A DNA stretch of 64,000 nt from positions 1 through 64,000 of the forward strand of contig QPGO01000101.1 in NCBI GenBank assembly GCA_008632985.1. The letters are read 5' to 3'. A model generated the notes under the pieces. The model worked only from the letters and a program-made list of their open reading frames with translations. It ran no database searches and was not told the origin of the DNA. This document shows, one piece after another, positions 3,990 through 51,987 of the stretch. A program made the translations under genes and the position numbers. Within the stretch, counting starts at the first letter, position 1. Each line of letters begins with the position of its first letter. Source of the DNA: Psammoneis japonica (taxonomy: Eukaryota).

Positions 3990-6753
3990 CTGTCACATTC
4001 GGCGTCAGTGTAAGGTCGCATGGCAACATAAGGCAGGCCAGCCTTGATGTCAATGGGGATGACATAGCCATCAGGAGTGGCGGTGCGTTGCAAGCCGTTG
4101 GGCACCTTGACAGAGCGATCGTTGACATCCTGTTTGCACCATTCGAGCTGGCCGCAGGAGTGGATGGTCTTGCCCTTTCCCGTGCATGCGTGCTGATGGA
4201 GGATGGCGATGACGGGACCACGCTGGGTCTCAATGACGGCACCAGCGGTGACAATGGGGATGTCCACCAATTGATGATCGTCAATGTGCAGCACGCGACT
4301 GTCACACACACGTTTGTGATTGCACATCATTTGCACGTCAATCGCGCCACAGTCGTGGATGCGTGCAAAGGACAGAACGATCACACAGAGTTGATCGGAT
4401 GTCGAGAATTGCAAATACGATCGATTGACGATGTTGACATCTTGCGTGTCAACAGCAATCGCACCCGGACAATCTGTTGTCACGAACACATTCTCTGAAA
4501 GGCCTTTTGTCTGCAGAAGCAGCGCAGAAGCTTCAGGCCATTGAAAACTCGTTCGGAGAAACCAAAAATCACAGAGCAAAATCTAATCTCACAATTTCCA
4601 CTTTTCGCACACTGTTCTACTTTCGTTTGCACTCGTTCTTCGAGCACAGTGCAAATGCCCTGAACGTCGACTTGGCGAGAGGTGCGTGCGATGACGCGGA
4701 TGTCGTCGCCAGCAATGCCGCCGTTGGCCCCACGATCGACTAGAGCGCCAGTGCGTGTGGAGCGATGAGCAGAGGCAGAGCAAATGACATTGTGGTTGTC
4801 AACGCGGTGGCAAGTGCGGCCGTCAAGTTCTGTGTCATCTGCAGAAGCTGGCGGGGTAGAGGAAGCGGCGGATGGCCCCGGTCGACTGGCATTGGGGGCT
4901 TGGTTAGGAGACAACAGATGTTGCAGATCACCGGGTGGCAGTGGCTTGCGCTTGGTGAGGTGCGCCAGGATGGGATCATCCGAAATGGCGTCCACATGTG
5001 CAGCGGAGTCACCACAGTCAGCAGGAGTCGTGTTGGACAAGTTGACATCACCGTCACTCCCAAGGTGTTGGTCGTGAAGGTTGGCCGTAACAGACTCATG
5101 GCAGCCACTGGCTCGCGGGTTGCGGGGAGGCGGACGAGAGTGCTCAAGGATGATCGCCTTGGAGGAATCGGGCAACGAATCCCAGAGCCGTTGGTGGTCG
5201 GGAGGGAGACGTCTCCATTGGACACCAGTGAGGCTGGGACCACGGGTGCAGGCAGCATTGGCTTGAAGGACGTCAATGTCGCTGTCAATGTCGCAGAACA
5301 CATCGTCGGACGGTTCCTCGGAGTGGACGTCGTGTGCGCACATGGCGCGTCGGGGAGCTCGAGGTGTTGTCTTGGGTTGAAACGTGCTGTCGCACTGAGC
5401 TGCCGCGGAGAGGAGCAAGCCACAGTGTTGATCGTATGTGAGGCTCTTGCCACTCTGCGTACGATGCTGATCAGCTTGGTTCTTGACAGCACGAAGTTCC
5501 TCGACAGGGTGCACGGCATTCTCGAGCATGACGCGCTTCTGTCCTTCAGAGAAGTGGTCGCTGGCGGGGATGAGTGCCTCGCACTTGCGCAACTGATCTT
5601 GCCAATGAAGGATGAACCCGTGGGTCGGACCTTTCCAAGTGCCATCACCAAGACGTGCGGTGGTGAGGTGCGTGAGCAGGGTGGAGGACTCGACAGATGC
5701 ACGGGTGGAGGCAAGCGCGCATTCAGACAAGGAGCGGCAGACGGTCTGTGCGTCAGAGGACCCCACATTTTCGCGAATGAGAGCCTTGCCCTTGTCAGTG
5801 AGAAGGATGCGTTCGAAGACGGCGAACATGCACTTTTGCTGTTCAGCAAAGAGCAGTTTGTCTTCGGGGCTGGTCGGTTTGTACGACGAGTCTAGAGTGC
5901 ACTCGACGTCTTGGGCACGGGCTTGTGCCACAAGTGAGGTGTGCCAAGTGTGCCACTGCTTGTCGGATTTGAGAGCCGTGAAAGCGGTGGGATCACGCTT
6001 GATGCCTCGCTTGAAGTCTCGCACCGGGTCGCGTGCCTTGGTCGGGTTGGTGACATGTGGAGGTGCAAGGGGTGAGCTGCCGATGGACAGAGAGGACATG
6101 CAGTTCGGGCTGAGGCGGCAGGCAAGGAACTCGTCATGCATGAACAAAGAGGAGTCGTTGGCAACGTCAAGACCTTTGTGTGCTTTGACAATGTACAGGC
6201 TAACTAGTGCTGCTAACATGTTCTTATAACCACGGGGCAAAGGGATTACATTGGTGCCGTTGTCGCACTCAAGCGAGTCGATTTGGGACGGCATGAACGT
6301 GAATGGTTCCTGATGCGAGTCCGTGCCGTCTTGGGCCAAAGCCAAACGAAGAGGACTCCCAGCACCTTGGGCAAGCACGGTTCCAACAACGTGCTCGAAA
6401 CCATCGGTTTGTTGCTGACGAGTGAGAACCATGGCAGACAAAAGTGGTGTCAGGACAATCAATTCTGGTTGGGAAGCGAAGGTGGACTCGAAACTTGGGT
6501 GAGAACAGACTTGACTTGAAATGGACTTGACTTGAAATCTTGAACTATCTTAAAATCAGAAGTCGCCGGGCTTTGTTATCCCGTTCGTTGTCAAGTGCTA
6601 AACTTCCTGTCCGGACCGTAGAGTTGTGCCGGCACGTCCGAACCCGCAGCCAGTGGTGCTTTGGGTTGCTTACGAGCGGAGTAGCGGGTTGTAAACCCCT
6701 GCAGGCAAGCTGACCAGAGGTGGACAAGACCCCCGAACCGTTCTTATTTTACA
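3990..6753 (-). mobile_element. truncated diatom Ty1/copia (CoDi-like) retrotransposon: gag plus protease region, TpA-mutated
   Basis: ORF 4480-6462 has RDFKRGIKRDPTAF, GFILHWQDQLR, MLENAVHP and the protease motif ALVDRGANGGIAGDD. It resumes after an insertion as IDDHQLVDIPIVTAGAV...GKGKTIHSCGQLE...GLPYVAMRPYTD and breaks near 3990. The 5' boundary is approximate. Confidence 0.8.
4287..4653. mobile_element. solo LTR nested in the copia protease region, with 4-bp TSD
   Basis: 367-bp insert TGCA...TGCA flanked by AATG (4283-4286 and 4654-4657). Removing it restores ...VDVQG-I-DDHQLVDIP... Confidence 0.75.
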
Positions 6754-12032: not shown

Positions 12033-13769
12033 CACTGAGTGAATTGACATGCGGTGGATTTTCGGCCGGCACACAATTTACGTGGTCTACATGAAAGATA
12101 AATTTATTCTGGTCTGTGAGGATTTTACATATCATTAACATTTCTTCTGTCTTCAAAATATACATACCCAAATTCAAAAAAGTGAGGAACACCCCGAAAC
12201 ACATTTTAGAATCTGGATAAAAAAAATTTTTATTTAACGGTCCGAACAGGGTCGCCCCGAAGCGCTTCTCGAAATATCTTTAGATTGAATAAGGTAAAAT
12301 ATCTACTGTTGGCAAAACAGAGTCACCATGGGCAAAATAGATCACCGTCCTTCGCGCGCAATGACAGCGGCACGATAACGCACAACAACACCATGGCGAG
12401 CAACGCGAACGCCGTTCACTTGTCTGCCAGCTGGTATTTCCAGATAAGATCAAAGCTGTTGGACAATGTTTATGCACTGCATTCATGGGTCAAGTTGGGT
12501 TCCTTCTCGTTGCTTGTTGTCGTGTCACTTTACAACGTCTTGACCCACGCCGTGTTTTTTGCTCTTTGTTGCTTCTGCTCGATCGCGCGCCACCGAACAG
12601 CTTTTCCTGCAGGGCATGGCTAGTTGCTCATCACATCGAACCCAAACGTGCGCGACCAGCTAGCCCCACCCCGGCTAACTCACAACTTTTGTAAACAACA
12701 GTCATTTTGTCGGCAGGGATTGACAAGATCCAGCTTCCTCCTCGAAAGAACAGCACACCGAGCAACACACTCACCGCTTTTGTGTTTTTGCCGTGACCCG
12801 TGGCATTGCATGCATGCAACACAACAAAATCTTTACCCAAAACATTCTTTCTGGAATGTGGCAGAAGGTCGACAGCCCGTTTTGGGTCCGTCGCCATTCC
12901 CGACTGCGCATTGGCTGCAGATTTGTGGTGCACTCCGTTTTCATTCAACGGCATGTTTTGTGCAGCATGTCCACTGCCTGTGGTGATGTCACCCCTTGGG
13001 TGGTCACCAGCATCTTCCGAATGAGACTTCAACATGTCATCAACCAATCCCTTGATGTCCAACTTGGACAAATGAGGTGCAAAACAATCACGCCAAAAAT
13101 TGCTTTCATGGTCAATGTGTGCAAAGTCGCCAGGGTCAATGTGCGTCCCTTTTGTTCAATTGACAGGAACACCTTGTTTTTTTGCCAGTTTGTTGAGCTT
13201 CCCACGATCAGAGCGGGGATTTTGGCAATGCGGTTCACTGTGTCCGTCCCATGACATGTGCCCCCCAGCTTCCGATGCCTCTAATCTGTTGACAGATTCG
13301 GTCTTCCACTTTTTGGAAAGCAATCCATGTCTTTTCACATTCTCAGGTTTGAACTTGAATGGTGCTTTTGGTTTCTCAAATGCTAAATCTGGTTGTTTTT
13401 CACCTGGCCATCGAGGCCTTGGAGCGTCGCCATGCCATGGAATGCCCTGCACACCCATTTCTTAAAATCTTTGAAGTTCCGCAAGTTGTTTCTGCCCAGT
13501 TTTCACAACGGATCTCACTCAAAGGCAAGACCTCAGCATGACTGTCAATGCAAACTCGTTCTTGTGGGCTCATGTCAAGTTGCTGCAACAAGTTTGCAAT
13601 GCGTTCTAAAGACATTTCACTGATGATGTGCAATCGAGCCAATGCACGTCGACATTCGACATAGTTGGCTGCACGTTGTCGAGCACGTCGACATTCATGT
13701 CTGCTTTCAGCTTGTTCTTCCAACATGTCCTCAATGTGATTTCGTGCACGTCTGTGTTCGGCTTGTTCT

Positions 13770-14386
13770 TCCTCGCCATGATGCACGTCCCAGTCCAGGA
13801 TGAGCATTTTTGAGGCACTTTTCCTGGTCAGCAGAGATTTTGCCACGACCGCCACCGTGTTGATGAGACAACAGCTGCCGCAATGTTCCGCATGGGCATG
13901 ATGCCCGGGGGGTCGTACGAGACAAAAGGAAGTCGCAGCTCTCTTGCCAACAAGTTGATGTGATGCTTCTAGACAAAGACTGATGTTGCAGAGAGCCACC
14001 GACAAAGAGTCTTCACAAAGGTGGACATCTGACTTTCCTTGTGGGATGACAAAGTTGCAGCTCTTTTCTGCTCCACAGACTTGACATGTCTCGAAGTCCT
14101 TTGCGTTTTCGAATGTACACAAAGCGCAGTTCCACGTCTCCATGGCTCTGCATCCGGTGCGGAGCTGCTCCAAATGCTCTGCAGAATGCAAGGCCAGGGC
14201 TTCTGCTTCACTTTTCCATCGAATGGAAAGACTCGTGTCATCTGGAGCATGGCATTGCTGCCATAGACCTTGACTCTGGAGTTCCTGTGCGATGGCCCAA
14301 AGTCGATCGGCACACTCATTCATCTTTCCGTCATGGCGTTCATGGAGAGAATTGCACCCCAGGAGGACACAGGATGAATGCGACAT
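13770..14386 (-). pseudogene. histone deacetylase (class II-like) fragment with a RanBP2-type zinc finger, truncated after DVHHG
   Basis: HERH...E..DRL, WNCALCTFENAKDFETCQVC, VRPPGHHA, ILDWDVHHG. It is then fused to unrelated Arg/Glu repeats. Confidence 0.75.
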
Positions 14387-16688
14387 TTTCTTCGGGGTTC
14401 TAAGGAAGTTTTTGCGGTGTCAGGAAGCATGAACATGGAATGATGCTACCGCATGATGTGCTTCACTCTTCCATTGCAAGTGGAGTGATGCGCGTTTAGA
14501 GTGAGTCTTGGCGCCACCAGAACCCGGACTAAATCCCAGGTTTTTGAACAAGGAAATTGTGCATTCAACCAAGAAATTACTTTTTCACACTGAGCTCACA
14601 GCCGTTGACAGATGATGACACAAACGTCCGTTGAATCATCCACGATGTCTGCACAATGTTGATTGCTGTCATTTCGGTCCTCATTGCATTGCTTCTCAAA
14701 GCGGCAACGGCAGCAGCAGGAGTCATGATGACCATGGTGATGATGGCACTGGGCATTCAAGCCATGCATCTCAAAGCAGCAAAATGGCAGCAGCCAGTGA
14801 GTCATGATGGCCAGGGCAGTGTTGTTGGTGCTGGGCATCAAAGCCGTGCTGACAGCAGCAGGAGCAGAGGAAACAAAAGTGGCAGGAGGAGCATTGTCAT
14901 CAGCAGCAGCTGGAGCACCCACATGATCCACCACAGCTGTGGCGACATTGTTGCTCATTTGCTCTGACGAACTCTCGACGTTGTTGCTCGTTGGCTCTGA
15001 CCAAGCAGCATCTTTGCATTTGATGAGCTGGCCACACCCATGTCCAAGAGCAAAGGCTCTTTTTTCACCTTTGCCCATTCCTTGCAAGTGCCACAATCTG
15101 TCTCAACTGGCTCAACATGGTCCCCCAACTCTGGTGGGAAATTCACACCTTGACACAATGACAAACCAGAGCAAATTGACATGAGAGCTTTGCGCAGATG
15201 TCACTTGAGTGTGTGTGGGTTGGAACTTTTTAGAGCTTCACAAGCTTCTCATCCTTTTCAATGTCAAGTCATGTCACTCAGAGCCACAGCATTTTGTTTG
15301 CAAAACCTGATGACAACTGACTCATGTCTTGCACCCGATGGATTGCCTGTTTGTTGAATGATGTGCCTTGCCACATTGACGACCCCCAAGTTCTCACATG
15401 GTCTGAGTGCTTGTCATCTGGGTCAATCCTGAAGCTTGTTTTTCAGGGGAGAGAGGGTCATGGTGACAGCCTTTGCAGATGTGTTTTGTCATGTCATCAA
15501 CCTTGGCCTCAGCTCCACTGTGCTTCCCTTTTGCAGGCTTCAAAACATGCAAGACAAGCATCATCCATTCCCTCTGAAGAAGGTTTCTTTAGCTCCAAGC
15601 TTTTAAAATGTCTGGTGTGGCATTTTCAATTTCCTCCATGGCACCTGGCTCTGGAGCACAATTTGGAGTTTTGTTTTTGCACTCATGGCATTTCAGCATG
15701 AGGGGGACCCCCAGTTCCCTTGATGAGCATGAAACATCATCATTGGACTCTTTCTGGAACTGCTCAAAGATGTGGATGCTGCTGGCTTCACCAAACCCAA
15801 GGCACTCCAACTTGAGTGAGTTTTCAGATCTGCAATCAGACTCATGTTTTCAGCCTTGTGTGCAGCGAAGGTGTGGGGAGCAGCAAGATCCAACCACCAC
15901 TGTTTGGGATTTCCAGTGTGGGTGTTGCTGCTGCAAGCTCCAATTGCAGACAAGATGGGTGCTCTGCACTTGTTCCCAGCTGTGGTTCATGCAGAGTTCT
16001 TCTTGTGTGGCCAGTCTTGTTGTTGTGCACCTTGTTCTTGTTGCTGCCACACCAAAAACATGGGGTCTTCATGTTCACAACTTTGCACCCACATTTTTCC
16101 AACATTGACAAGGAGGTCCCTGTCAAAAACATCTGGAAAGATGCAAAACACAAGAGTTCCCAAAGGGACCTCAAACTTGCTCTCTGCTTTCTTCATGCCT
16201 GCTGCACTCTGCTTGGCACCTTCTGCAGCTGTGCCAAACATGGCAAGTTGGGCCCGGCCAGCCTGCTTGTGCTTCTCAGCTTAAACTTCCTGCTCTTGGC
16301 AATGCTGTGCACAAAGCCTTGCTGAGGAAAATGCTTCTGTGTGTGCTTGTCCAGTGCCATCCCATCCACTGGTTGTTTTCAAATGAAAAAACATGCCATT
16401 GCCAGAAAACAATGGAAACCAGCCAGACAAAAAGAACCCACCACAACAAAACACATGACAATGATGGCAGCCTCTTGTCTTGGCCCGTTTTTGGCTTTTT
16501 TGCTTGGCCGATGTTTCATTTTCAACACACAAGGGAGTTGCATGCTGTGCATCAACGCACCACATCACTGCATGAGAAACCAGAACTTTTGTTTGTCAGG
16601 GGGGGAATTGAGCATGTTTCATCTGCACCTCACAGTGTGAAACACCCTGCGCCGCAAAAAATGGTTTGCCTTCCATGAGTGTGTCTGG

Positions 16689-17103
16689 TTCATGTCCACA
16701 TCCACATGTGGCGTGGATGTGTCATCTGCTCTTAAAATTTTAATTTTGGGTTTGTTGCTGTCAGAGTTGTTGAGGCATGTCAGCTGCGTCAATGCAGGAA
16801 ATTTGAAAATTTGAAGTGCGGTCTCGCCCCACAATTTTTTTCTTGCCATCAGCCGCAAGAGAGATGTGATCAAGTTGTGCTGTGCAAATGCACTGGACAT
16901 GGCAACCCGACACCACATTCAGCTCTTGCTGTCTGTTTTTTTTTTAAATCACAACATGTCAGAGGAGTCGTCAAAGAAAATGACACCAGAGTGGGGCAGA
17001 GTTTGGAAGCAGATCACTGCCATGTTGCTCATCGTGATCGTCTTGGCCAACGCGTGTGCCATCATTGCCAAGGAAAACAACAATGAACACATCAACACCG
17101 TCC
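16689..17103 (+). repeat. hypermutated direct copy of the promoter and 5' coding end of the gene at 19567 (partner 19289-19738)
   Basis: Colinear alignment, including the shared ttgaaaatttgaagtgcggtctcgcccc. SEESSKKMTPEWGRVWK corresponds to LEESSKKTTTEWGRVWK. Confidence 0.9.
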
Positions 17104-19566
17104 ATGCAGGTTTCTTGGTGAGGTGGGTGGTCTTTGGGTGAGGCTTGAACAAGATTTTGAAGTGCATGGGGGCATTGTCATGGGGTGAAATGACTGGGAC
17201 GGTGGTGGTGCAATGTGGGGCAGCAAGGATGCATTTGATGTCAGCCTCAGTGGCAGTGTGCATGCGGGTGGTGAGGATGCAGTGGGCCTGCATTGGGCAT
17301 TGGTTGATTTCAAGGAGTTGTTGGGTGAGGCAGTCAGCATCGTTGGCATTGGTGGGAAAGGGGGGTGGCACAGCAAAAGGGATGTTGCAGATGGTGAATT
17401 TGCCACACTCTTTGCCGGGTGGGCTGGGGAGCTTGGTGAGTGTGGTCCAAGCAGCATCGGTGGTTGTGCAGATGCAGTGTGCATTTGCTGATGGTCCAGT
17501 GTGGCAACCTTTCCAGTGGGTGGGATGGAGACTGATGCAATTGATGAGCTTTTGCAGGAGCAGAGCTGGGGTTGAACAGAGGTGCCAGGTGGGTCTTGAT
17601 CAGGGAGGAGAGAGTGTGTGCAGCTGTGCAGGCATGTGAGTGGAAATTCCATGGTGCAATGTGTGGGACCGCAGCAGTTGGGGGAGGCACTGGCAAGGAT
17701 GCCACAAGTGGTGTCTGTGAAGTTGTTGGAGGCAGGGATTCAGGGCGCACAACATTCTGCCCATGGCTCCGTGATGGTGTGGCGAATTCCAGGGGGCATG
17801 TGGAGGGGATGTGATGCGGGCATTGGTCATTGCAGGCGAGTTTGTGGAAGTGGTGAGTGGGGCAGCAGCACCAGTTTTGGATGTTGAGGTGGATGGCTTG
17901 TTCTCAGAAAAGTTGGAAATTGAATTGGTTGTTGGCGATGGCTGGGATGAGGGCAATGTTGCGTTGTGAGTGCCAGCTCTTGGTTTTGCGCAGTGTGTTG
18001 CAGTCAACATCAGTGGTGGAGGTGTGTGCTGCACATCCCACAATTTGATGGCAGGAGGCTTGCGTTGGGCATGGTGGGTGAGCGGTTGCGTGATGGTGTG
18101 GCTAATTGCATCGGTGTTGAGTGGGCCTGGTTCCATGGTCAGGTGATTTGCATCAAACATGAACTTGAAAGTGGTGGTTGGCATGGGATTTTTGCTGGTG
18201 GAGTCAGAGGGAGGGTTGTTGGAATCAACTGCAATGGCGGAGGTGTCATCAACAGCGGTGGTTTCAGTGATGCTGCCAGTGTCAGTGTGGTGGTGGTGAC
18301 GGCAGAGCAAGCAGGGGCAGCAGGATCCTCATTGGCGGGGATGGAGTTGGGCTTGGTGGGCGATTGCGAAGTGGTGTCGATGGCTGTGGTGAGGGAAGTG
18401 GTGGCTTGGATGGGAGTTGCATGGGTGTGATTGGGTGTGGCACATTGGCCAGCATCAACAGCAAGACATGGGTTGGCAGGAGTGGTGGTGACACCATTCG
18501 GGTCGGTGTTGGGTTGGGATGACATGGTGTGCAAAGGCAGAAGCAAAAGTGGAGAAGGTGGCAAAGAGAGCAGGCAGTGGTGCAATGAGGGATGAGGGTC
18601 CAGTTTTGTGAGAGAGTGATGTGAGGCAGTGGAGGACAGGTGATGGTGGCGTGTTGTCAAAAGGATGTGGTGATGCATGTGGGTCATTTGGGTTGGCTGG
18701 TTGGCAACATGTGTGTGTCACTGAGGGCAGTTGAAAGTGACTCGTTGGGCATTGGGTGGTGAATGGGTGACAGGAGGTGTGCGCTGAGCATTGGGTGGAG
18801 AATTGTGTGAGCGTTGGACATTTGGTTGGTGACATTGGTGAGATGGGAAGGGCAACAGTGGCAGCGGGCAGAGTGTTCGTTGGTGGAGTCATCAGCAGGG
18901 AGTTGGGCGGCGCATGGGTGGGGCATTTGGAGTTGTGAGCAAGGATGTTGGGGCCACAGGAGGGGCAATTGCAGGGGAGATGGTGTTGGTGGTTGGTGAT
19001 GGGGAGGCGGTGATTTCTAGGAAGGAGCGATGATGAATGGGGGTGGTGACGATTGCGACGATGGTGGTGCAGATGGCTGCCACGAGGCGCGTGGAATGAT
19101 GCGTGCAAAAGCCGAGACTCGGTGGCGGGTCAGGAGGCCATGCCAGGATGCAGGCAGCATTGTCATGGGGGTGGAGAGCCAAGAGAGAGGTCATCGTTGT
19201 TGCGTGCGTTCGATGGTTGCGTTGAACTCGAAAAGTGTTGAGTTGCTCAAGCGGATTGACGTACAGACTTACGGGTGGGTCCCGTTAATTCATGTTATGC
19301 TACATACGGCGTGGACATGTCATCTCCTCTTCAATTTTTTATCTTAGGTTTGTTACTATCAGAGTTGTTGAGATATGTTAGCTACATTAACGTAGAAAAT
19401 TTGAAAATTTGAAGTGCGGTCTCGCCCCATAATTTTTTTTTCTCCGTCAGCCGCCGCAAGAGAGATGTGATCGAGTTATGTTATACACACAATGCTTTGG
19501 ATATAGCAACCCGACACCACGTTACAGCACTGTTGCTCTCGCTGTCTGTTTTTTTCATCAATAAAA

Positions 19567-20829
19567 ATGATGTTAGAGGAGTCGTCGAAGAAAACGACGA
19601 CGGAGTGGGGTAGAGTTTGGAAGCTGATCGCGACCACGTCGCTCATCGCGACCACGTCGCTCATCGCGATCGTCCTGGCCAACGCGTACTACGCCATCAT
19701 CGCCAAGGAAAACGATATTGAACTCGTCAACACCGTCCCGTCGGAAAAGAATGTGCCGAGCCGCAAGACCTTGCCTAAAATCGAAGAGCTCAGGTTCGAA
19801 CTCGCCCGGATCCATCTGGACCTTATGGAATCGGACAGCAGGGATCTCGACCATGCCAAGACCTTGGAAGAACGTCACCTCCTGAGAATCGATCCGTTGT
19901 ACGACTTTATCGACAACGCAATCGACACGGTGGGGATGAAACCTGTGCTTTCGACGCTGTGGCACCACTACAAGCTTCTGGACGCGCTCGAAACAGTTGC
20001 ACACTTCGAAAGGAACCTCACCAAGTTTTTCACTGAGTTCCGCCACAACGAGAACCATCAGCCCCACTTCATCGTGAAGCACGTACCGAACGACCGCGAG
20101 CTGTTTGATTCCCCATCGGATGGGTCACTCTGCTTCGGCTGTCCGTGGTGGATGTTTCATTGGGTAGGTGCGATCGCTGCCGAGAAGATGCTCAAGGACG
20201 GCCGCCTCCGGATTGACGCATACGCAGAAACCGAGAGAACGCATGGAGGCAGACAGGAGGATAAGAAATACCTCAACAGCCTGAAGGAGGTACCAATGGC
20301 CATCATTAAGTGGATGTACGACGATCCATACGCAGAGCTCATGACAAACCACGCCCTTCACGGTTTCATCTGGCAAGCCATGGCCCAAACCATGCCTCAC
20401 ATGGACACCTACCCCACCGAGTTTGCCCAGAGCATGTGCGGTGACCTTTCCAGGGAGTATGGTAACGTGCACTAGGCGGTAGGAGTCAGAGCCACCACTG
20501 AGTGCTGGCACTCGGTTGGCCACGGCATCTTCATGGTGTTGGCTAACCGGCAACTGGAAATCTCGGAGACCACGACGGCTCGGATGCAGTTCCGCCCTGA
20601 GTCCAGCTTCTTCCTGGCCAAGGAGAACGTCTGTCTCGGTGAAACAATCTGTAATCAGCCCCCCAGACTCAGCCTCTTCTCTGGGAAAGATGAATGGAGG
20701 AACGACACACCCGTGAACCACTGTCACAACGCTTTCAGGCACAGCATGCGGCTGTTGGGCCCCCCTTACCTGAACAGCAAGGACAAAAAGCTGCTCATCA
20801 ATAAGCAAGTTGAAGAGTGCAGCCGGTAG
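19567..20829 (+). CDS. membrane-anchored hypothetical protein with HG/CWHxxGHG motifs and one in-frame TAG at 20473-20475 (possible pseudogene)
   Basis: ORFs 19567-20475 and 20533-20829 share a frame. The sequence between reads H*AVGVRATTECWHSVGHGIF. N-terminal TM helix and normal Tyr content. Confidence 0.6.
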
Positions 20830-23639: not shown

Positions 23640-23799
23640 ACCGTTTCATTGAATCTTTAGCTTTTCGCGTACGAGTGTAACTCTATAGCGCCAGACCTGC
23701 ATACTTTCTTTGTTCTTCCGGATATCCTGCGAGGACGATAAAACTTACTTAATGAATCAGGGTGAATGGCAAAATTGCAATGCACAACTTGAAATCGGG

Positions 23800-24130
23800 A
23801 CCAAAAGGTGGTGAATTTCTGTTGCATTGATGGCAACTTTGCCAGGCCGAGGCAATCAGCAACAAAAAGTTTGAGGTTTGGATGATGCAAAGGGCCCACA
23901 AGGTGTGAAGAGGAGCCAAGTGGTCGTGCAGGGATGCTGTTCCAGTGATCCCAGTCCAGCAAGCCTCTGTTGTGGAGAAGGAAAATGAGATGTGTTGACC
24001 CCCAAGGGAGACAGAGTGCCAATGCTGTTCCTCCTTCCAAGGCTCATTTGCAATCTGTGGTGGTGTTGATGATGCCAAACTGATCTTTGAGGAGAGCTGA
24101 TTTGTCAAGTGTGGCTGGGAAGAGTGTCTT
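23800..24130 (-). pseudogene. hypermutated 3' fragment of a paralogue of the GT61-like gene at 29578-31059
   Basis: EGGTALALCLPWGSTHLIFLLHNRGLLDWDHWNSIP...LHHPNLKLFVADCLGLAKLP versus GGGTASAFFLPRGSHLILFYDKGLLDWDYWNNIP...LHLPNLKLLVEDCLGLAKLP. Confidence 0.85.
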
Positions 24131-25609
24131 GATGCCCAGCATTTTCAACCAGAGTCTTGACATGCTGCTGGTGTGTTTGGGAGTTGCTGAGCTTTGTGGG
24201 ATCCCTGCCCACTGCAGACTTGCCAGCCTCAAGCCAAGATCTGAAACTTTCTTCATCTCAGCCACTGCTTTGCCCAGCTTGTCTGGTTCATTGTGAGCCT
24301 TCACACAGTGCACAGTGCATTGGTCAATGGAGAACCATCCCCTGCCAGCACACTTTTCAGCAGCAATCACAGCATGGGTGTGGCTTTTCCTGGCACTTGT
24401 GTTGCCACCAACCTTTCCACCTGCTGTTTCAAAGGTCAGGCTGTTCCATGGCTATCATGTGTGTGGTGGCTGGCTGCAGAACACAGTGGAGATGACTTTT
24501 GTTGTGGTGGTTGTGCTCAGGACCTTGTGTGCCACAGGCAGCAGCTCACAGCACATCTGCAACTGCTTCCCCTTCATGGAGTGGGTGGATCAAATGGGAT
24601 CCTGTTGTGGCACAATGACAATGGTGAAGTTTGGTCTCCAACAACTTGATGAAAAGAAGGTGGGGAACTCATGGACCTGCGTTGACAAGGTGGCCTTGCA
24701 CTTGCCATTGTCTTCCAAGTCTGAGGGCTTGAGCCAGCTCTGCAAGGCACTTGGCAAGAACATGCCTGGCCTGTCATGTTGCCAGCAAAGTTGGCACCTG
24801 CAAATGAAAGGGAGCCTTGTTGGCGCCAAAGGTGCTTCTTGGCATGTTGGAGAACAACCCAAGTGCAAGATCTTTGACCCAGGCCTTTCACACTCAGTGT
24901 GGGGCAGCGCAGTGCTCACTTGGAAAATTGAGTGAGGTGCCAAGCAAGATTTGGAAAACCTGTGCTGCACATTCTCAAAAAACATGTTGCGTGGGAATGC
25001 AGTGTGGGAGTTGCTGATTTGGCATGTTTGCTCATCTTTCCATGGCAGACAGAGCCCCTCAAGATGTTCTTGAACCCTTGCCAAAAGGGCACATCATTGG
25101 GGATTGGGGTGGAAACCGGCAACACAGAGAGCAAGATTCTCTGTGACAGCAGCTGCACCAGCAATTGTCTGCACTCCAGTCTGCCCCTGGAGGCACCCAC
25201 AGGGAAATGATGGGAAGACATGACCCATCAAATTCAAGGGGTTGGCAATCCTTTGCTCCAATTGACCACTGTGCTTTTCTTGACAGTGACTCTCAAATGT
25301 CTTTGAAACATCAAGTGCCAAATGTGGCGTTCCACAATCCCAGATCCTCATGATGCACATTGGGCATCAACATTCTTCAATGATGTCTCTTGGAAACCCA
25401 GCTTGGGTGTCAGAGGTTTTCCACTCAGAAGCACACCAAGAGCACAGCCACCACACCAAACAGTGCCACTCTCCCATTTGTTCTTTCCTTGACTTTCAAC
25501 CTCTCCCTGGCAATCAGGTCAGCCTCTGCACTGACGCTGCTCACTCCTGTGCTTTTGCTCCCACTCACTCATCAACTGGAAGTGACTCCACATCCCCACA
25601 ATTGTTGGT

Positions 25610-26600
25610 CACATGGCACATGCCTCTGTGACTGTCTGAGCAGGTTCAGTGAGAGCATCCACAACCATGTCAGCCATGTCATCAACAAAGGTGCCATCAG
25701 CATTCAAGGCTGGAGACCTTCTCCAGTTTGTCACGCTGCTTTTTTTGGCCAACTCTCTGCACTCAATGTTGATTTCTTCAAGCATTTCAATGTGTTTGCT
25801 GATGCTGACAAAGCCAATTGGCACAACAACCAAGTTTCTAACACCACTGGCCCCAAGCTCTGGAAGCACATTGTCAGTGTGCAGATGAAGCCATTTGTTG
25901 GGGCCCACCTGACTTTGGCAGCTCAAATGGATTTCAACGCCGTCCTTGGGCCCAGGAAGCAATTTGGGTGTTTTTCTGATCTGGTGCAATCCTTTGTCTG
26001 TTCTTGACATGCCTTCCCCCCATCAATGTAAGATTTTGGCACCCGATGAGCAGAGAACAGCACGTGGTGGGCACATTTCTGCCCCACTGCCGTGCCCTCT
26101 GTGACATCTTCAGGCGTGAAGGACTCAAGCTTTTTCTGAATTGCCGCTGCCTTGACACAACCCGGCCCATCGCACCATGAGGGACCACCATGTGAACCAT
26201 TTCATCAGAGCCCAAACCAAGCTGTGTTCTTGGCAAAGATCTCCTGCAAAACTTGCAGGCTGCTCCCAGACATGGACCTGCTCCTGAACTGAGGACAGAG
26301 TGGGAGAATGACAAGAGCACTTGTGTGCCATCCTTTTGAATCTGTTCCAAAGCATCCTCAGCAAATGGGTGCCAGCATCACATCCCAACACATGCCTTGA
26401 CATCCAGGCCATGATGTCATTTTTTCAAAGAGTGACTCATGAGATTTGTTGCAAGCAGCCCTTGATTTGGGAACTTGCTTTCCACATCATCTGCGCAATT
26501 GGTGACAGCAATGGTGCCAGTGGTCCTGGCAGTCAAATGATGTCAGGGGCGGCAAACAGGTTGCACAGCTCACCTGTTGGAAGGTGGCAATTTTGGCATC
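25610..26600 (-). pseudogene. hemH: ferrochelatase pseudogene
   Basis: LCNLFAAPDII*LP (~26530-26570; canonical LYNLFADPDIIRLP), EQIQKDG, HLSCQSQVGP..WL..HTD.VLPELG..GVRNLVVVPIGFVS..HIEMLEEINIECRELA...WRRSPALN. Multiple frameshifts. Confidence 0.85.
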
Positions 26601-27049
26601 TCCATCTAAAGCTCAGCTGCTCACTCCTCTTTTGTCAAATGCCGCTGGCACTCCCTCAGTGCTCAATCATCTGCTGCTGCATGTTGGGCAGCAACTGCTT
26701 GATGAATGTTGAGTGCATCAACTGATGATGCAGTGCTGCAAAAAAAGGGGGCTGGAGTGCTGATTGCAAAAAGTGGAAAATTGAAAATTGCAACCAGCTT
26801 CCACAGACCACAAGCTGCTGCAAGAATTGAAAATTCCCTTCGCAGTTTTTGATTTGCCCAACAAGCACCCAATTTGGGTGGCAGTGCAACTTGTGGTCCA
26901 TTCCAGAAAATTGTTGGTCAGACAAAAATGTGTTGCAACAGGCACAGCTGATTTTTTGCTTGTGAAAAAACACAAAAAATGTGCTGAAAAGTGAGGAAAT
27001 GCCAAACACAGGAGCCTCTTGCTGATCTTTGCTCACCCTGGATCTTTCT

Positions 27050-27580
27050 CTCTTTAAGCTGCATCTTCAAGGTGCAAAAATGGGCCAGCTTCTGCACACA
27101 CACAGAGCTTGGCATGCGCTCCACACAAATCACCAAAGTCAGCTTGCCAACTTTTTCAATGCTCTCCAGGATGATGGAAGCCTGGACAACTCATGCAGCA
27201 AAGAGTTCAAAGTGCTTGTTTGGACTCCCCTTGACTTGCTCATGGAGAAAAAGTGCATGTTTTCACAGGTTTTTGAAGACGTGCACTAAGTCCATTCAGA
27301 AAGGTGCCAAAATCATGATGCTTGAGTTTTGTGGAGCCATGTCAAATGGCTGGGGTGGTGCATGAAAACATGTGGTCTCTCTTGATGAACAATTTGAGGG
27401 GAGCTCACCAAGCAAGCAGCCCAAACACTTGTTTGTCATGAGAAATGCAAAAGTTTCCATCACCTGGGAGAGGGCCAAAGTGGGTGACACAACTTTGGTG
27501 ATTTGTGTGGAGAAAACATGCTGAGTTCTGCGTGTGCAAAATCTGGCCCAAATTTGCACCCATGCCGCCTTAAAGGGGCC
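27050..27580. repeat. degenerate inverted repeat with ~220-bp arms (fold-back/MITE-like)
   Basis: Arms ~27050-27270 and ~27360-27580. tccacacaaatcaccaaagt occurs at 27120 (+) and as its reverse complement at ~27492-27511, and the flanking sequence also aligns. Confidence 0.7.
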
Positions 27581-29577
27581 ATCCTCCTTGCAGTGGAACC
27601 CAAATTTTTCTTTCATTTTTGGAAATCTTGCCAGGCCTGAAGGGGAGAATTGACCATGGTGGTGCCAGCTCTCCACCCCCCCATGCTCCTGCACTGTGCA
27701 TTGGCAGTGGGTGGGCTGCCATGGTGCATGGCACAGCATGTGCATGTGGTGTGCTTGCAATGTGGGCGACCATCATGTTTGATGGTTCACACCATTTTTG
27801 GGGCTGGAGCAAGGTGCACAAACTTTTTTGCCACCACGGTGGTGCATGGCACGAACTTGCTTGTTGCTCAACATGTTTTTCTTTTTCCATGGTGGCCACT
27901 TTATGTGGAATTTGCAGCAAATTGTGTTTGTCCAAAGGTGAGCAAAATTTTCAACATTCCATGCTGGCAACCCCAGTTTTTAACAAATCTCAAGCTTTCC
28001 TGAAAAACAGCTCTGTGTGCCAATTTTTTAGGAAGAAGTCCCCATGAACTCCAATGCCCCAATGATCATTCCACAAATTTGAATAGATCAATTTGACTGA
28101 ATGGCCTGTGCCATTTGACATGACAAGGGGCACACTTTAAAAGGGCAACTGACCCATCCACTGCCTGGCCAACAGACCAGCCAACAGACCGCCAAAACAA
28201 AAAAGTGTCCTGGGACACCAACCACTCAGCGGTCAATGAAATCTTTTGCACCACCCACCAAAGGTTGGGGGGGGGGTCCAAGTGTGTTTTAGAGAAAGGG
28301 GAGAAAGCCCCTGCTCTGGCCATTTGGGTTTTCAAAGAAAGCCAGATCACCAAGTCAAAAAGGAAAAAAAGCACAAGACCTTGCCCAAATGGTGGGGAAG
28401 AAGTGTGCGACATCAACAACTTTGCACGGTCATTGGGCAAAGACTGCACACCCAAGTGAAAACAGCGCAGCTGAGGCTGACAACAATGTTTCAATGAATG
28501 AGTGCCAGTGCACACCATGGACAACACTGGCTGCCACAGCAGTGTTGCAGCTGTCTTCACAGCAACAGGCTGGGCCTGAAAGTGGCCAAGGCTTTGACAC
28601 AATGCTCCAGACGTTGGCCGCAAAAAATGATCACACAGCTGAGTTGTGAGTCACATGACAAGCTGGGTGGCTGCTGGGCTGTCTTGCAGCATTGACAGTC
28701 AACAACACAGCAAGATCCATGAGAAGGCACACATTGTTTTGTGGTCTCAGTAAAAAAAAAATAAAAAAAGCAGCTGCAAGCTTCAAAGCAAAACTCCACT
28801 CTCCAAGATCTCCAACCAGCGCATCCCTTGCTCTTGCTTTCTTGTCAGTGTTTGCCTTGCTTTGCACCTGCCACCCCTTTCTTTGTCCTGTTTGTGCTTT
28901 TGGGAACATGTGCACAAGTGGCCTTATTTGAGCACCACTTGAGGGGGGTCATTTGCTGGAATTTTAGCTTGAGTTTGGCCAAACAGCTCCCAGTTCACAC
29001 AGTGTTTTTTTTTAGTTTCACTGCTCTTCATCCTGGTGAAAACAGCAAGCCATGAGACTGGGTGGAGGGGGGGAGCTCTGCCAACTCTTGTTCATTTTGT
29101 GTTTGTTGTGTGTCAAAGGTCACACATGCACCAAAAGTTTGTGGACGGCCCACTGCGTTTTGGAGAAAAATCGACGGTTGTCGTCATCGCCGTGCTTCGA
29201 TCGCGGTGCCTGATGTTCTCGTTTCCGTGCCAATCGGGTGAGAATGTGAACAATTTGTGCATTCAAAAATAATGACTGTAAAAAATCTTAATCAAATGCC
29301 ACGGTAATTTTAGGTTAAACGCGGGGATGACCTCACTCAAATCGCAGGATCTACCGTATCTGGGGATGACCTTAAACAACAGTGGAACATTCTTCCTATG
29401 AGTAGAGAACCTTCTATTTGTAAATGTCAACGCATCGAATTCCTCGTGGCGCCTGTGCAATTTCGCACCGACCTGGTCGTTCTTCCTCGAATCTCGTAGA
29501 GAGGGATTATATGATGTGCGTCCACCTCTATTCGGGTGAGGCATCAGCAGGGGGGGCTAGGCACAACTTGATCGAGG

Positions 29578-37100: not shown

Positions 37101-37400
37101 GGATTGGTGTGGGCATGGCAAGAGCATCACTGAGCTCAGCACTGCAAGAGATCCTGCCAGAATTTTTTCATTTGTTGTTGGGAAATGTGCCCATGCTCTG
37201 CACACACAGCAAAAAAAAGCGGCTCTCGCTTCCACACAACATTTTTTGTGGGTGGTGAGAGCAGCACCCATGGTGGATCAGTGTTTTGCAATTGTTGACC
37301 TCTGTTGTCATTCTAATTTGTTTGTTTGTGGCAACATTTCTTGTGTCAAGAGACAAAAGAGCTGGAAAACAGGCCACAGTCACAAACGACTTTTGTTGCG
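34130..37400. other. TpA- and CpG-depleted block, content unidentified
   Basis: Almost no TA between the BBE gene 3' flank and ~37430. Confidence 0.9.
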
Positions 37401-38884: not shown

Positions 38885-39568
38885 CTACTTAGTGTCCGCC
38901 AGGAGGAAGGAGACCATCACATTGCCCAACTTGTCGTGAACCATCAAACCCAACAAACCCATTTGGGCGGCACGACCATTGTTCAACTCAATGGCACGCT
39001 TCCTCAGTTTGGTTTCGTCCGAATAGCTGTCCCAACCAAAGTCGAGGGCACCGTTCCTATAATAGCAGGAGAATGACAGACTTGAATCAGTAAACACAAA
39101 CAATAAACACTTGTTGAAATTGCCATTATGATGGAACAATACGCACCTGAAATCACCAACAAATTCTCCCTTGCCTGTAAAGTCCTGGTTAATGGCTTCC
39201 GCCAACAACACAGCCAACGCCATTTGCCCAAACACAGCCGGGGGGACCTTTTCAAGGGCCGCAAAACCCGAGGGAATGTCTTCGGCTCCGGGGAAACGAA
39301 CTCCGGCATACGTTACCAAGTATCCAACGACTCCCAACATGGCAATACGGCCATGCTTGAGCTCGACGTATCGAAGGCGATCGAATTTTTCTTGGTCGGC
39401 ATCCTTGACCATACCGAGTGGATCAAAGAAACCAAGAGGAGGCTGCGCACCAAGCTCATCTTTAAAGGCCTTCAACAAAGTGGAAGAAGAAGCCTGCTGC
39501 TGCTGCTGCTGGGCAGGAGCAAAGGCAGCGGCCGAAGCAAGAAGGGAGGCAAGGATAGCAGTCTTCAT
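38885..39568 (-). CDS. Lhcf: fucoxanthin-chlorophyll a/c binding protein; exons 39568-39147 and 39056-38885, 90-bp intron
   Basis: MKTAILASLLASAAAFAP (bipartite plastid targeting), ELGAQPPLGFFDPLG, RLRYVELKHGRIAML, GDFR|NGALDFGWD, RAIELNNGRAAQMG. GT-AG intron 39146-39057; 197 aa. Confidence 0.95.
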   Translation of the reverse strand: MKTAILASLLASAAAFAPAQQQQQQASSSTLLKAFKDELGAQPPLGFFDPLGMVKDADQEKFDRLRYVELKHGRIAMLGVVGYLVTYAGVRFPGAEDIPSGFAALEKVPPAVFGQMALAVLLAEAINQDFTGKGEFVGDFRCVLFHHNGNFNKCLLFVFTDSSLSFSCYYRNGALDFGWDSYSDETKLRKRAIELNNGRAAQMGLLGLMVHDKLGNVMVSFLLADTK

Positions 39569-39636
39569 GGTGAAACGGTACGATACAGTGTTGCAGTGCG
39601 CTGTTGCGAGGAGGAAGTGCATGATGAACACGTGAA

Positions 39637-39675
39637 TCTCGCGATCTTCTGTGGAGCTGAATTCAACATCCGGGT
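39637..39675 (-). promoter_or_regulatory. conserved upstream motifs of Lhcf copy 1
   Basis: TCTCGCGATC (39637-39646) and TTCAACATCCGGGT (39662-39675), both also present upstream of copy 2. Confidence 0.55.
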
Positions 39676-40168
39676 ATTTCAATAAAGACAGGATGATTGA
39701 GTGGTGATTCGCGACCAATCAGTCCGTTTCTACGTGAATACATAGTAGTCTACAGTGCCGCTATAAAGTTTCCGATGCATGGCTCTGCGGGACTCGAAAA
39801 TGCCTCGTCGTCTCATCCAAACGCCGAATTCGAAACTCCACAGCTTATTGTTGTGCTACTAGATATGGTAGTAGAGTAGTCGTAGAGGATAGCCCTAGAG
39901 AAATAATATGGCTAGGGTACAATGACAAGGCGGTTCCCAAAGACCCATCAAATGATCCGCTGCGTACCCCAACTCAGTTCCCGAAGAGATGACAAGGTCC
40001 CCTTCTCTTGGAAGGGGTGCTTGATGCATGACACGAACAAAAGCAGTTGGCTGTAGTCCACTACGTTGCAATCGGGGACAGTTTGAAGGATCGACTTATA
40101 ATTAGCCATTCTACAGTTTGAGACTTGCTAGTAACATTTACAATCCAAGTCCATGTCGTACAATGTAC

Positions 40169-40842: not shown

Positions 40843-40880
40843 GATATAACCGTGGATCGAAAATGAAAGTGTAGTTCAGG

Positions 40881-51880: not shown

Positions 51881-51987
51881 ATTTACGCGACGGCGCCGAG
51901 CTTCTAGCCGAGTTTGCCGCCACGGACGCCATTTTTGAAGCAAACCCGGGAAAGCAGCGAGTTTGAAACGCACTTCTCGTCTTCACC

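Follow-up and report, generated by a model that had tools for sequence, protein, structure and literature searches.

The window analysed here, the whole 64,000-nucleotide stretch at the start of a Psammoneis japonica contig, holds a direct duplication in which one copy keeps its TpA dinucleotides and the other has almost none. This raises the question of whether the process that removed them is aimed by the pairing of repeats or by position in the chromosome. We favor in-place, DNA-level hypermutation of defined chromosome stretches, aimed by location, and give this reading a probability of about 0.7; the base for generalization is three duplicate pairs in one 64-kb window. The features on which the argument draws are collected in Table 1.

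Table 1 Features of the 64-kb window and their state of conversion.
Feature	Position	Strand	Remarks
TpA-only block with ORF689 (4483-6549)	4065..6546	-	
Converted block containing copy A	12834..19262	n/a	TpA/CpG depletion
Histone-deacetylase-domain fragment in block	13403..14419	-	Pfam E 2.5e-26, first half of domain only
Copy A, converted	16675..17103	+	direct-duplication partner of copy B
Spacer X between copies A and B, converted	17104..19274	n/a	
Copy B, unconverted	19275..19738	+	ORF302 upstream region and first 57 codons
ORF302 (302 aa)	19567..20475	+	intact open frame, TpA content normal
Converted block, TpA and CpG depleted	23750..29270	n/a	holds copy 23782-24047 at left end
Ferrochelatase C-terminal fragment in block	25612..26022	-	Pfam E 1.3e-23
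Converted block, TpA and CpG depleted	34273..37314	n/a	no Pfam match
Two tandem fucoxanthin-chlorophyll-protein (Lhcf-type) genes, unconverted	38886..40854	-	control pair
Converted block, TpA and CpG depleted	41458..48883	n/a	no Pfam match; longest TpA-free run
copia 5' LTR, spared	51621..51875	+	13 TpA
copia internal region, TpA depleted, CpG normal	51905..58521	+	RVT_2 domain
copia 3' LTR, converted	58522..58776	+	
Converted block, TpA and CpG depleted	58843..63420	n/a	immediately right of copia 3' LTR

The initial annotation had described a direct duplication of ~420 bp with one pristine and one converted copy. We recovered this duplication, and every example change quoted for it is found in our alignment; a purine/pyrimidine-coded comparison, which sets the extent of both copies, makes copy B slightly wider than the 19289-19738 first given. 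The decayed ORF302 upstream region and first codons are still recognizable in copy A. Over 400 aligned bases the copies differ at 68 positions (52 transitions and 16 transversions), plus indels, and an 18-bp tandem duplication is present in B and absent from A. The 21 TpA of copy B read TG at 10 sites, CA at 9, AA at 1, TC at 1 and TA at none in copy A, whose aligned part has 3 TpA, none of them opposite TG or CA in B. Conversion from B to A versus the reverse therefore stands at 19 versus 0 (binomial p = 3.8e-6). The 30 CpG of B became TG (9), CA (9), CG (11) or CT (1), or 18 conversions versus 1 in the reverse direction (p = 7.6e-5), and the aligned part of A holds 12 CpG. Existing TG and CA of B are unchanged in A at 21/23 and 18/23 sites, respectively. 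It had been suggested that the intact copies might prove to be recent re-insertions. Given the 16 transversions and several indels between A and B, they are not. A search for homologues of ORF302 of near lengths found none.

Spacer X retains TpA at 18103 and 19018 only; it matches nothing in Pfam and is not homologous to the DNA that follows copy B. Its GC skew is +0.41 to +0.54, and its minus strand carries open frames rich in Pro, Thr, His and Ser. In the surrounding block, depletion of TpA begins at ~12834, and CpG is depleted together with it over 14578-19018. At the right edge CpG is back at ~19050; TpA returns at 19262, which leaves 13 bp to the X|B junction (19275). The 290-bp upstream part of copy B is spared, with 11 TpA in 100 bp. 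On the location-aimed reading, only A was converted because it lies inside the converted stretch, while B lies in the spared ORF302 flank. These duplicates amount to a natural experiment, one sequence having been mutated at one site and left intact 2.6 kb from it, which argues for positional aiming, by chromatin or transcription, and against RIP-like pairing.

The two LTRs of one element are identical at integration, owing to the mechanism of reverse transcription. Where the copia 5' LTR has TpA, the 3' LTR reads CA at 6 sites, TG at 3, CG at 1 and TA at 3. The 10/13 changed sites are spread along the whole LTR, one having reached CpG via a double hit. The 3' LTR retains each of the 18 CpG present in the 5' LTR, and the pair has 4 non-TpA differences in 255 bp. 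This bears out the initial annotation, which had the 5' LTR nearly spared and the 3' LTR converted. Since the LTRs of one integrated element differ, DNA was the substrate and conversion came after integration. The internal region (TpA o/e 0.07-0.29) has three long open frames with Tyr at about 1%. A third pair, 23782-24047 and 29561-29824, has 0 versus 6 TpA (5/6 changed), the partner at 29561 lying outside the block in the 3' end of a GT61 gene. As a control, the Lhcf paralogues (38886-39569 and 40166-40843) differ at 152 of 667 aligned bases, by 72 transitions and 80 transversions, and hold 20 and 16 TpA with no one-sidedness; they are indeed untouched, as had been claimed. All three informative pairs are converted on one side only, in the member inside a TpA-free block, and the LTRs and the 23782/29561 pair would owe their one-sidedness to position in or out of a block, as would A and B. 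The earlier proposal of position-dependence instead of pairing is thus supported. The coded self-comparison showed no further duplicate pairs above the shuffled control (~99 bits), and a metagenome scan with a 30-nt LTR word gave 0 matches.

The direction of change can be read from protein alignments. In the copia reverse transcriptase ORF, compared with 80 homologues, nine conserved-Tyr columns hold Y (2), C (3) and H (4), while conserved C, H and P are kept at 4/4, 3/3 and 15/15 positions; the reverse transcriptase box YVDD has become HVDD (VVHVDD in the ORF). ORF689, compared with 66 homologues, has Y (2), C (6), H (2) and F (1) in 11 such columns and a Tyr content of 0.6% versus 3.7% in those homologues. 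It belongs to an unnamed multi-copy protein family and probably comes from a transposable element. Because conserved Tyr columns in these two block ORFs read Cys or His (15/20), the change ran from TA to TG or CA, and TpA was lost. This agrees with the initial view that the process is the reverse of RIP.

We next consider the window as a whole. About 25 kb (25.3 kb) lies in fully converted blocks, with TpA o/e 0.03, CpG o/e 0.20 and TG/CA o/e about 1.85, and about 9 kb (9.4 kb; the copia element and the TE-like ORF) lost TpA only. Counts of TA, CG and TG+CA are 848, 1032 and 3105 in unconverted DNA (20.7 kb), 50, 301 and 5838 in the fully converted blocks and 76, 644 and 1545 in the TpA-only blocks. 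Per base, the three kinds of DNA keep a constant density of YpR steps (0.245, 0.242 and 0.241). The longest TpA-free run measures 2367 bp (44773-47140) and has a probability of 8e-43 at the TpA density of the unconverted segments. Separately, we observed a stretch of 87-bp repeats at 8442-11255 with a Lys/Asp-rich frame that is TpA-free for 1442 bp. It was left out of the block statistics; low-complexity coding could explain its absence of TpA.

The identifiable contents of the blocks are the copia element, the TE-like ORF, the histone-deacetylase and ferrochelatase fragments, the ORF302 5' end and the GT61 3' end. From their sequences, we read the histone-deacetylase fragment (Tyr 0.3%, Cys 6.8%, His 6.2%) and the ferrochelatase fragment as putative converted pseudogenes, and such cellular-gene fragments presumably have intact copies elsewhere. 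Among 135 block ORFs of at least 95 aa, Pfam placed only ferrochelatase above its cut-off and returned no viral gene or hallmark; DUF7315, DUF7455, Peptidase_M64 and Gmx_para_CXXCG fell below the cut-offs. These 135 are the full list of 162 less the 27 ORFs of 4065-6546 and 8442-11255, five of which were scanned and gave no Pfam match. In the Protein Atlas, the FAD/BBE ORF had family-level matches only. The k-mer depth of the blocks is ~50-80, equal to that of neighboring genes, and they are therefore single-copy today.

One-sided conversion would also result if the process were triggered by duplication, as in RIP or MIP, with the repeat recognized by homology and the functional or transcribed partner shielded. 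All identifiable block contents are copies of some kind, be it copia, the TE-like ORF or a gene fragment, and DNMT4, which is related to the RIP enzyme RID and has no known function, is present in many diatoms according to PMC9998398. We nevertheless consider a duplication trigger unlikely. Conversion is as complete in the unpaired spacer X as in copy A, the spared partners show zero TpA loss, and the main target in Bigelowiella natans is single-copy, as the main text of a preprint has it (10.64898/2026.01.13.699255). The present single-copy state of the blocks also speaks against it, as does the absence of further pairs, both in the coded self-comparison and by tblastx among the eight blocks (no match at 1e-4).

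The block sequences recur in public data. Contigs from a public run (run X1) cover 12000-31000 with a depth of ~50-80 in blocks and genes alike and 3-12 differing letters per 1-2 kb relative to the window. One of them, 2178 nt long, runs across the 19262 border, covering 17250-19426 and differing at 10 letters. The run may come from the same sample as the window assembly and is thus not fully independent of it; the block sequence is no product of faulty assembly of the window itself. In nanopore data, A-to-G and C-to-T miscalls occur at modified bases, and the blocks could in principle record such miscalls or another sequencing or assembly error in long reads, with modified bases read as G or T. 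That the public-run contigs reproduce the blocks and bridge a border makes this extremely improbable, as do the indels and transversions that also separate the copies and the consistency of Tyr to Cys/His along whole ORFs.

As a sign of new mutation under way, there are only two TG/TA differences between the window and run X1 (14244 and 19055), the latter in the border zone. The one at 19055 bears on the idea that the blocks were mutated before or during insertion, as extrachromosomal, foreign or mobile DNA, and that the borders are insertion junctions. The TpA-free zone ends 13 bp from X|B and, at the left border 23750, starts 32 bp before copy 23782; both blocks are flanked by direct duplications, resembling long target duplications around an insert. 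Borders this close to X|B and to copy 23782 are equally compatible with a chromatin domain and with a discrete unit that was inserted or duplicated. However, conversion has also reached copy A and copy 23782, which duplicate resident host sequence; 10 TpA conversions set the two LTRs of one copia apart; both strands are hit; and the difference at 19055 suggests change in place. Mutation ahead of insertion is accordingly, in our judgment, quite improbable.

Counted in 50-bp bins, TpA and CpG change level across a border within one or two bins. The TpA-free zone exceeds the CpG-poor zone by 50-300 bp at four borders and coincides with it at two. Most gene ends lie 100-700 bp from a border. The initial annotation had inferred protection near active promoters, and 5' flanks are indeed spared, over 305 bp before the ORF302 ATG and 251 bp before the beta-helix ORF. 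Yet borders come equally close to 3' ends (114 bp for the 2OG-oxygenase ORF, 311 bp from the GT61 stop and 333 bp for the FAD/BBE ORF), and a promoter rule is too narrow.

Selection was considered in the same context. A genome-wide bias from TpA and CpG to TpG and CpA, with purifying selection retaining both dinucleotides in functional DNA only, would place converted blocks in non-genic DNA and genes in spared segments, as is the case here. In seven ORFs of the unconverted segments, however, TpA o/e is 0.51, 0.51 and 0.55 in codon phases 1-2, 2-3 and 3-1, although many changes in phases 2-3 and 3-1 are silent; in block ORFs the same phases give 0.15, 0.19 and 0.18. Because the values for the spared ORFs are equal in all three phases, selection did not clear changes from genes that had once been hit. 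The 100-700 bp next to genes are spared as well, including the upstream 290 bp of copy B, and the borders are step-like. Selection alone does not account for the spared copies, and we regard bias combined with selection as very unlikely.

Three further candidates were rejected. GC-biased gene conversion is not dinucleotide-specific, and the CpG loss is opposite in direction. UV photoproducts at TpA left by a lack of transcription-coupled repair do not agree with spared non-transcribed gene flanks or with the lack of strand bias in copy A (10 TG, 9 CA). Foreign DNA with its own composition does not explain the conversion of host-derived copy A and of conserved Tyr codons.

TpA loss and CpG loss are two separable steps, because the young copia lost TpA yet keeps 18/18 CpG of its 5' LTR. 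Diatom transposable elements are CpG-methylated, by DNMT5a, as PMC9998398 reports. The CpG loss seen here resembles methyl-CpG decay in that CpG to TpG/CpA change is confined to silent repeats (18/30 CpG lost in A). Such decay covers only the CpG half of the signature, and the young copia, having lost TpA, has lost no 5' LTR CpG. The residual CpG sites show a flank bias, YCGR being most depleted (chi-square p = 9e-5), which might reflect an enzyme instead of passive CpG decay. For TpA, outcomes sorted by the next base weakly favor T-A-pyrimidine (13 versus 6, p = 0.17), and among residual sites YTAR, where a purine comes after TpA on either strand, resists conversion most. A rule requiring a purine at position -2 of the target A was discarded, the counts (YTAY to TG 8 versus 3, RTAR to CA 5 versus 3) being the opposite of what it predicts.

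Under location-aimed hypermutation, TpA would be changed to TpG or CpA (A:T to G:C, with either strand as the target) to the point where TpA is nearly gone, and in older blocks CpG would also have decayed to TpG/CpA. The targets would be nearly all DNA between transcription units, namely dead transposable elements, gene fragments and spacers, with conversion stopping within about 50 bp at the borders. The chemistry may be adenine deamination at T-A, weakly favoring T-A-pyrimidine, and the loss of CpG a separate, slower decay of methylated CpG. To judge from positions only, the aiming signal may be silent or methylated chromatin. The process may serve as a defense against mobile or foreign DNA, as proposed for B. 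natans.

Diatoms and chlorarachniophytes are distant branches of the SAR group. We tentatively suggest, as a possibility that we hold to be somewhat doubtful, that they share a defense in which a DNA adenine deaminase, guided by silent chromatin and not by homology, erases every TpA outside active transcription units and a linked cytosine process then erases CpG. Such a system would cost the DNA its TATA boxes, TAA/TAG stops, AATAAA signals and every tyrosine codon yet create no stop codon, and the duplicates of this window would be the first evidence of purely positional aiming, with borders within one nucleosome. To date there is a single description of TpA-directed hypermutation, in a 2026 preprint on a rhizarian alga (10.64898/2026.01.13.699255), and our literature search for TpA hypermutation in diatoms found no report. 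If an alga with diatom-type antenna proteins carries the footprint in saturated form, the mechanism would be widespread and extend beyond one species. Converted elements are unrecognizable at the DNA level, and repeat and gene annotation will miss them; purine/pyrimidine coding recovers them. Sequence alone is enough to chart the silent compartment, by scanning for low TpA o/e where YpR density stays constant. Should the enzyme be identified, it would offer a naturally occurring adenine editor that works on double-stranded DNA or chromatin.

Among known systems, RIP, the repeat-induced point mutation of ascomycete fungi, changes C to T (G to A), makes TpA mostly from CpA, needs homology and hits both copies; it relies on a RID/DNMT4-type enzyme and is tied to a premeiotic stage (see also PMC3318451). 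The process seen here is like RIP in being transition-only and dinucleotide-specific, in ruining mobile or duplicated DNA in place and in leaving compositionally odd blocks. It differs in that TpA is destroyed, whereas RIP creates it from CpA, and in that one copy is converted in 3/3 pairs, whereas RIP mutates both. It may also differ in not needing homology, given that unpaired spacer DNA is converted and the blocks are single-copy by depth, although the block contents are copies of genes or transposable elements. Deamination by ADAR or ADAT likewise turns A to G with a 5' T(U) neighbor. Those enzymes act on RNA, however, and the differing LTRs of one element point to a DNA substrate here. 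ADAR-type editing fixed by reverse transcription, which would leave the two LTRs of a new copy alike and one strand dominant, is also unlike what we see, the LTRs differing at 10 TpA and both TG and CA outcomes occurring. ADAR prefers G after the edited A, whereas YTAR is the most resistant class here.

The closest parallel is B. natans. In its mutation-accumulation lines, integrated viral regions present in single copy mutate TpA to TpG/CpA about 1000 times as fast as normal, according to the main text of the preprint (Mettrop et al., bioRxiv 10.64898/2026.01.13.699255, 2026), which proposes ADAT2/3 as the candidate enzyme and finds TpA-poor genes enriched in reverse transcriptase and transposase domains. 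A term search of that main text returned no mention of CpG, flanking bases or borders. Unlike this chlorarachniophyte, the alga studied here encodes fucoxanthin-type antenna proteins in the window; most of its blocks are CpG-depleted as well, and its targets are copia, the TE-like ORF and cellular-gene fragments, with no viral gene among the 135 block ORFs. TpA loss is near saturation here (o/e 0.03), compared with a Rho of 0.45 in the B. natans viral region as the main text gives it. Targets are single-copy in both, here by k-mer depth, but those of mobile origin (copia, the TE-like ORF) stand here beside the histone-deacetylase and ferrochelatase fragments. In conclusion, and as far as that text goes, the two systems share the change of TpA to TpG or CpA on both strands (19/21, 10/13 and 5/6 changed in our pairs), clusters poor in TpA and rich in CpA+TpG, and confinement to regions in strong contrast to the rest of the genome, with step-like borders here.

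We observed that ordinary DNA and converted blocks, stretches in which TpA is almost absent, succeed each other along the window. In the dinucleotide observed/expected (o/e) profile, ordinary DNA shows TpA at about 0.5-0.7 and CpG at about 0.9, and TpA is essentially nil in the blocks. The longest TpA-free run measures 2367 bp; if TpA were as dense there as in ordinary DNA, its probability would be 8e-43. Segments were pooled into three classes for statistics (Table). Pyrimidine-purine steps per base are nearly constant (0.245 fully converted, 0.242 TpA-only, 0.241 ordinary), as expected if TA and CG became TG or CA via transitions alone. An 87-bp tandem repeat (about 7.6 copies, 9533-10196) lies in a Lys/Asp-rich open frame (8820-10229); identity between copies is about 99% in purine/pyrimidine coding and about 92% in four letters, the variable columns being mostly CG/TG/CA mixtures, and region 9578-11020 has no TpA. 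On the minus strand, 21553-22192 holds low-complexity frames, one with long Glu runs and SKS repeats, another with Lys/Arg runs; Pfam matches Rpc31 there, weakly and below threshold. In X1, a public sequencing run whose contigs we compared with the window, word depth is elevated at 20876-24045.

Table. Duplicate copies, segment classes, block borders and block contents in the window
Feature	Position	Strand	Detail
Copy A	16675-17103		limits from purine/pyrimidine-collapsed comparison
Copy B	19275-19738		limits from purine/pyrimidine-collapsed comparison
Fully converted class, 25.3 kb	14578-19262, 23750-29270, 34273-37314, 41458-48883, 58843-63420		o/e: TpA 0.03, CpG 0.20, TG 1.82, CA 1.89
TpA-only class, 9.4 kb	4065-6546, 51905-58777		o/e: TpA 0.16, CpG 0.91, TG 1.34, CA 1.33
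Ordinary class, 20.7 kb	five gene-bearing segments		o/e: TpA 0.57, CpG 0.92, TG 1.19, CA 1.21
Border to ORF302 ATG			305 bp before
Border to beta-helix ORF			251 bp before
Border to exonuclease-domain ORF 5' end			about 720 bp
Border to 2OG-oxygenase ORF			114 bp after
Border to GT61 stop			311 bp after
Border to FAD/BBE ORF			333 bp after
Copia element in block			RVT_2, E 1e-36
TE-like ORF in block			unnamed multi-copy family
Half histone-deacetylase (HDAC) domain in block	13403-14419	-	E 2.5e-26
Ferrochelatase C-terminus in block	25612-26022	-	E 1.3e-23
Two gene-end duplicates in blocks	copy A; 23782-24047		

The direct duplication of copies A and B was recovered by repeat search, MAFFT and BLAST alike, and its limits were set with purines and pyrimidines collapsed so that transitions are ignored. 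Copy B comprises the upstream region and first codons of ORF302. Over 400 aligned bases the copies differ at 68 positions, of which 52 are transitions and 16 are transversions, and also by several indels. None of the 21 TpA of B is kept in A, where 10 read TG and 9 read CA, and its 30 CpG include 9 that became TG and 9 that became CA. TG and CA of B are retained at 21/23 and 18/23 sites, and changes in the reverse direction number 0 for TpA (binomial p 3.8e-6) and 1 for CpG (p 7.6e-5). The initial annotation had called one copy converted and the other pristine; all the strings it quoted are found in the alignment, and the claim is borne out more strongly than it was stated. Copy B also carries an 18-bp tandem duplication (about 19626-19661), six codons that place ATTSLI twice in ORF302 and that A is without. 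The unpaired spacer X between the copies (17104-19274) is converted as completely as copy A. It shows an excess of G over C (GC skew +0.41 to +0.54), TG outnumbers CA by 318 to 176 over 16945-19018, and its minus strand has Pro/Thr/His/Ser-rich frames. Spacer X may be a decayed low-complexity gene, and the skew may be a trace of that origin rather than of one-strand editing.

Three pairs in the window have one member in a block and one outside: A/B, the copia LTRs (5' LTR 51621-51875, 3' LTR 58522-58776), and 23782-24047 with its counterpart 29561-29824 in the 3' end of a GT61 gene. Conversion is one-sided in all three, and the converted member is the in-block member every time. Since the unpaired spacer X is converted like copy A, pairing is probably not the mark for conversion, at least not now. 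As far as sequence can tell, these data support the earlier proposal that position rather than pairing decides. The tandem Lhcf genes in ordinary DNA are untouched, as had also been noted, with symmetric differences (72 transitions, 80 transversions). Word depth in X1 contigs is about 50-80 on blocks and genes alike, which indicates that blocks are single-copy, apart from 12000-13267 and 29118-29751. Both of these are repeats of high copy number on the edges of blocks, with word depths of about 1000-3800 and about 550, respectively, versus about 55 elsewhere, and many X1 contigs end or join there.

Under RIP, copy B and the 5' LTR would have gained TpA. However, DNA lacking TpA over kilobases includes duplicated promoter and coding-start sequence of the ordinary kind, so the TpA-free state cannot have been the starting state. 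Under the genetic code, a change from TpA to TpG or CpA creates no in-frame stop and removes TAA, TAG and all Tyr codons, which accounts for the long open stretches seen in each of the six frames of blocks. It also turns TAY into TGY or CAY, and thus Tyr into Cys or His, matching the replacements of conserved Tyr in block ORFs. The copia RT/RNase H frame (56022-58511), aligned with 80 homologues, has 2 Y, 3 C and 4 H at its 9 conserved Tyr columns (Tyr in at least 60% of homologues), and it retains other conserved residues (Cys 4/4, His 3/3, Pro 15/15, Asp 14/16). Copia elements carry YVDD at the RT box; the window reads VVHVDD. For ORF689 (4483-6549, minus strand), an alignment to 66 homologues shows 2 Y, 6 C, 2 H and 1 F at 11 conserved Tyr columns, and Tyr makes up 0.58% of it versus 3.7% of the homologues. 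Compared with solved structures, the HDAC and ferrochelatase fragments show like changes, e.g. vYl to vHl and ieY to ieC. The sequence evidence says that the direction is TpA loss in the converted members, the opposite of the RIP prediction. We rejected RIP for this wrong direction and because one partner is converted where RIP predicts two-sidedness.

By the mechanism of reverse transcription, the two LTRs of one element are identical when integrated. The 13 TpA of the 5' LTR read CA 6, TG 3, CG 1 and TA 3 in the 3' LTR, so the 3' LTR, described earlier as converted, is so at 10/13 sites. These changes are distributed along the entire LTR, and 18/18 CpG of the 5' LTR are unchanged. Only four differences lie beyond TpA sites, which makes the element young and the loss of TpA rapid. 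Since some sites became TG and others CA, both strands were hit. At 51809-51810 (58710-58711 in the 3' LTR) a TpA corresponds to CpG, indicating hits on both strands at a single site and that the process can make new CpG. The alignments indicate that conversion acted on resident DNA, later than duplication or integration. ADAR-type RNA editing was rejected because the LTRs of one element differ. Our data show a DNA-level transition process that is TpA-specific, acts on both strands, in place and within limited regions, and outpaces both CpG decay and background substitution.

Block borders are step-like at 50-bp resolution and lie near most gene ends, on both gene sides; the exception is border 37314, about 1.6 kb from the 3' end of the first Lhcf gene. 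The TpA-free zone extends 50-300 bp past the CpG-poor zone at borders 19262, 29270, 48883 and 41458, and the two zones end together at 23750 and 34273. A chromatin domain with promoter protection would be a reasonable mechanism; gene 3' ends are spared as well as promoters. The right border 19262 is 13 bp from the junction of spacer X with copy B, which may reflect coincidence or recognition of a discrete unit. A/B and 23782/29561 share the layout copy, insert, copy, gene, with the gene-distal copy and the insert converted. At 16675-19738 and 23782-29824, a direct duplication of 265-430 bp surrounds a 2.2-5.5 kb insert beside a gene. Beyond the contents in the Table, nothing was recognisable in the window's blocks, and tblastx found no relation between them. 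The HDAC and ferrochelatase fragments derive from cellular-type genes, not mobile elements, and are presumably pseudogene copies with intact partners elsewhere.

If the process hit all DNA and selection rescued functional sites, silent TpA in genes should vanish. Instead, seven ORFs of ordinary segments have TpA o/e of 0.51 for codon phase 1-2, 0.51 for phase 2-3 and 0.55 for phase 3-1; silent TpA positions persist, and we rejected selection rescue. The corresponding values for five block ORFs are 0.15, 0.19 and 0.18. The block sequence recurs in the X1 contigs, one of which crosses border 19262, spanning 17250-19426 with 10 differing letters in 2178. This agreement excludes an error in the window consensus, not every artefact, as X1 may be the source sample. 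The window reads TTGCG at 19055, in the border zone, and CTGGA at 14244, where X1 reads TTACG and CTAGA; these are possible segregating conversions. Among 40 listed differences between window and X1 (192 further), 11 of the 23 transitions examined are CpG/TpG/CpA changes.

The TpA that survive in fully converted blocks (n = 50) are YTAR (TTAA, TTAG, CTAA, CTAG) in 41 cases (82%) and RTAY in none; of the TpA in ordinary DNA, these two contexts make up 18% and 32% (odds ratio 20.5, p 8e-21). This symmetric survival means that a target A is disfavoured where both strands read Y-T-A-R. Across the three pairs, YTAY sites became TG 8 and CA 3 times, and RTAR sites CA 5 and TG 3 times; these counts are in keeping with a target A preferably followed by a pyrimidine (13 vs 6, p 0.17), which is suggestive only. 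Surviving CpG is lowest in YCGR (44 vs 272 in the reference set, chi-square p 9e-5). The surviving contexts point to flanking-base preferences of both processes.

We infer that the process would be adenine deamination to inosine at T-A, aimed via a silent or methylated state that marks the DNA lying outside transcription units, and CpG would be lost as methylated CpG decays. In diatoms, TEs are reported to be CpG-methylated via DNMT5a (PMC9998398). The closest match to the window's process is TpA hypermutation in Bigelowiella natans, as described in a 2026 preprint (bioRxiv 10.64898/2026.01.13.699255). There, two integrated viral regions accounted for 231/302 nuclear mutations in mutation-accumulation lines, almost all being A to G or T to C at TpA; single-copy status was confirmed for the NCLDV region, 124 TpA-poor, CpA+TpG-rich clusters were found in the genome, and adenine deamination was raised as a candidate, with ADAT2/3 proposed. 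In the main text of the preprint, a search by term turned up nothing on CpG, flanking bases or borders. A full-text literature search, with most subscription journals outside its reach, found no report of the signature in diatoms among the papers it listed. The window is not from B. natans: its antenna proteins best match fucoxanthin chlorophyll a/c proteins (6ly5_W FCPI-17, E 1e-63), PDB entries from diatoms, and its ORFs are long and uninterrupted. We file the process as the just-described kind of TpA hypermutation in a different algal lineage, to which the window adds conversion near saturation, accompanying loss of CpG, sharp borders, a bias in flanking bases and duplicates that serve as a natural control.
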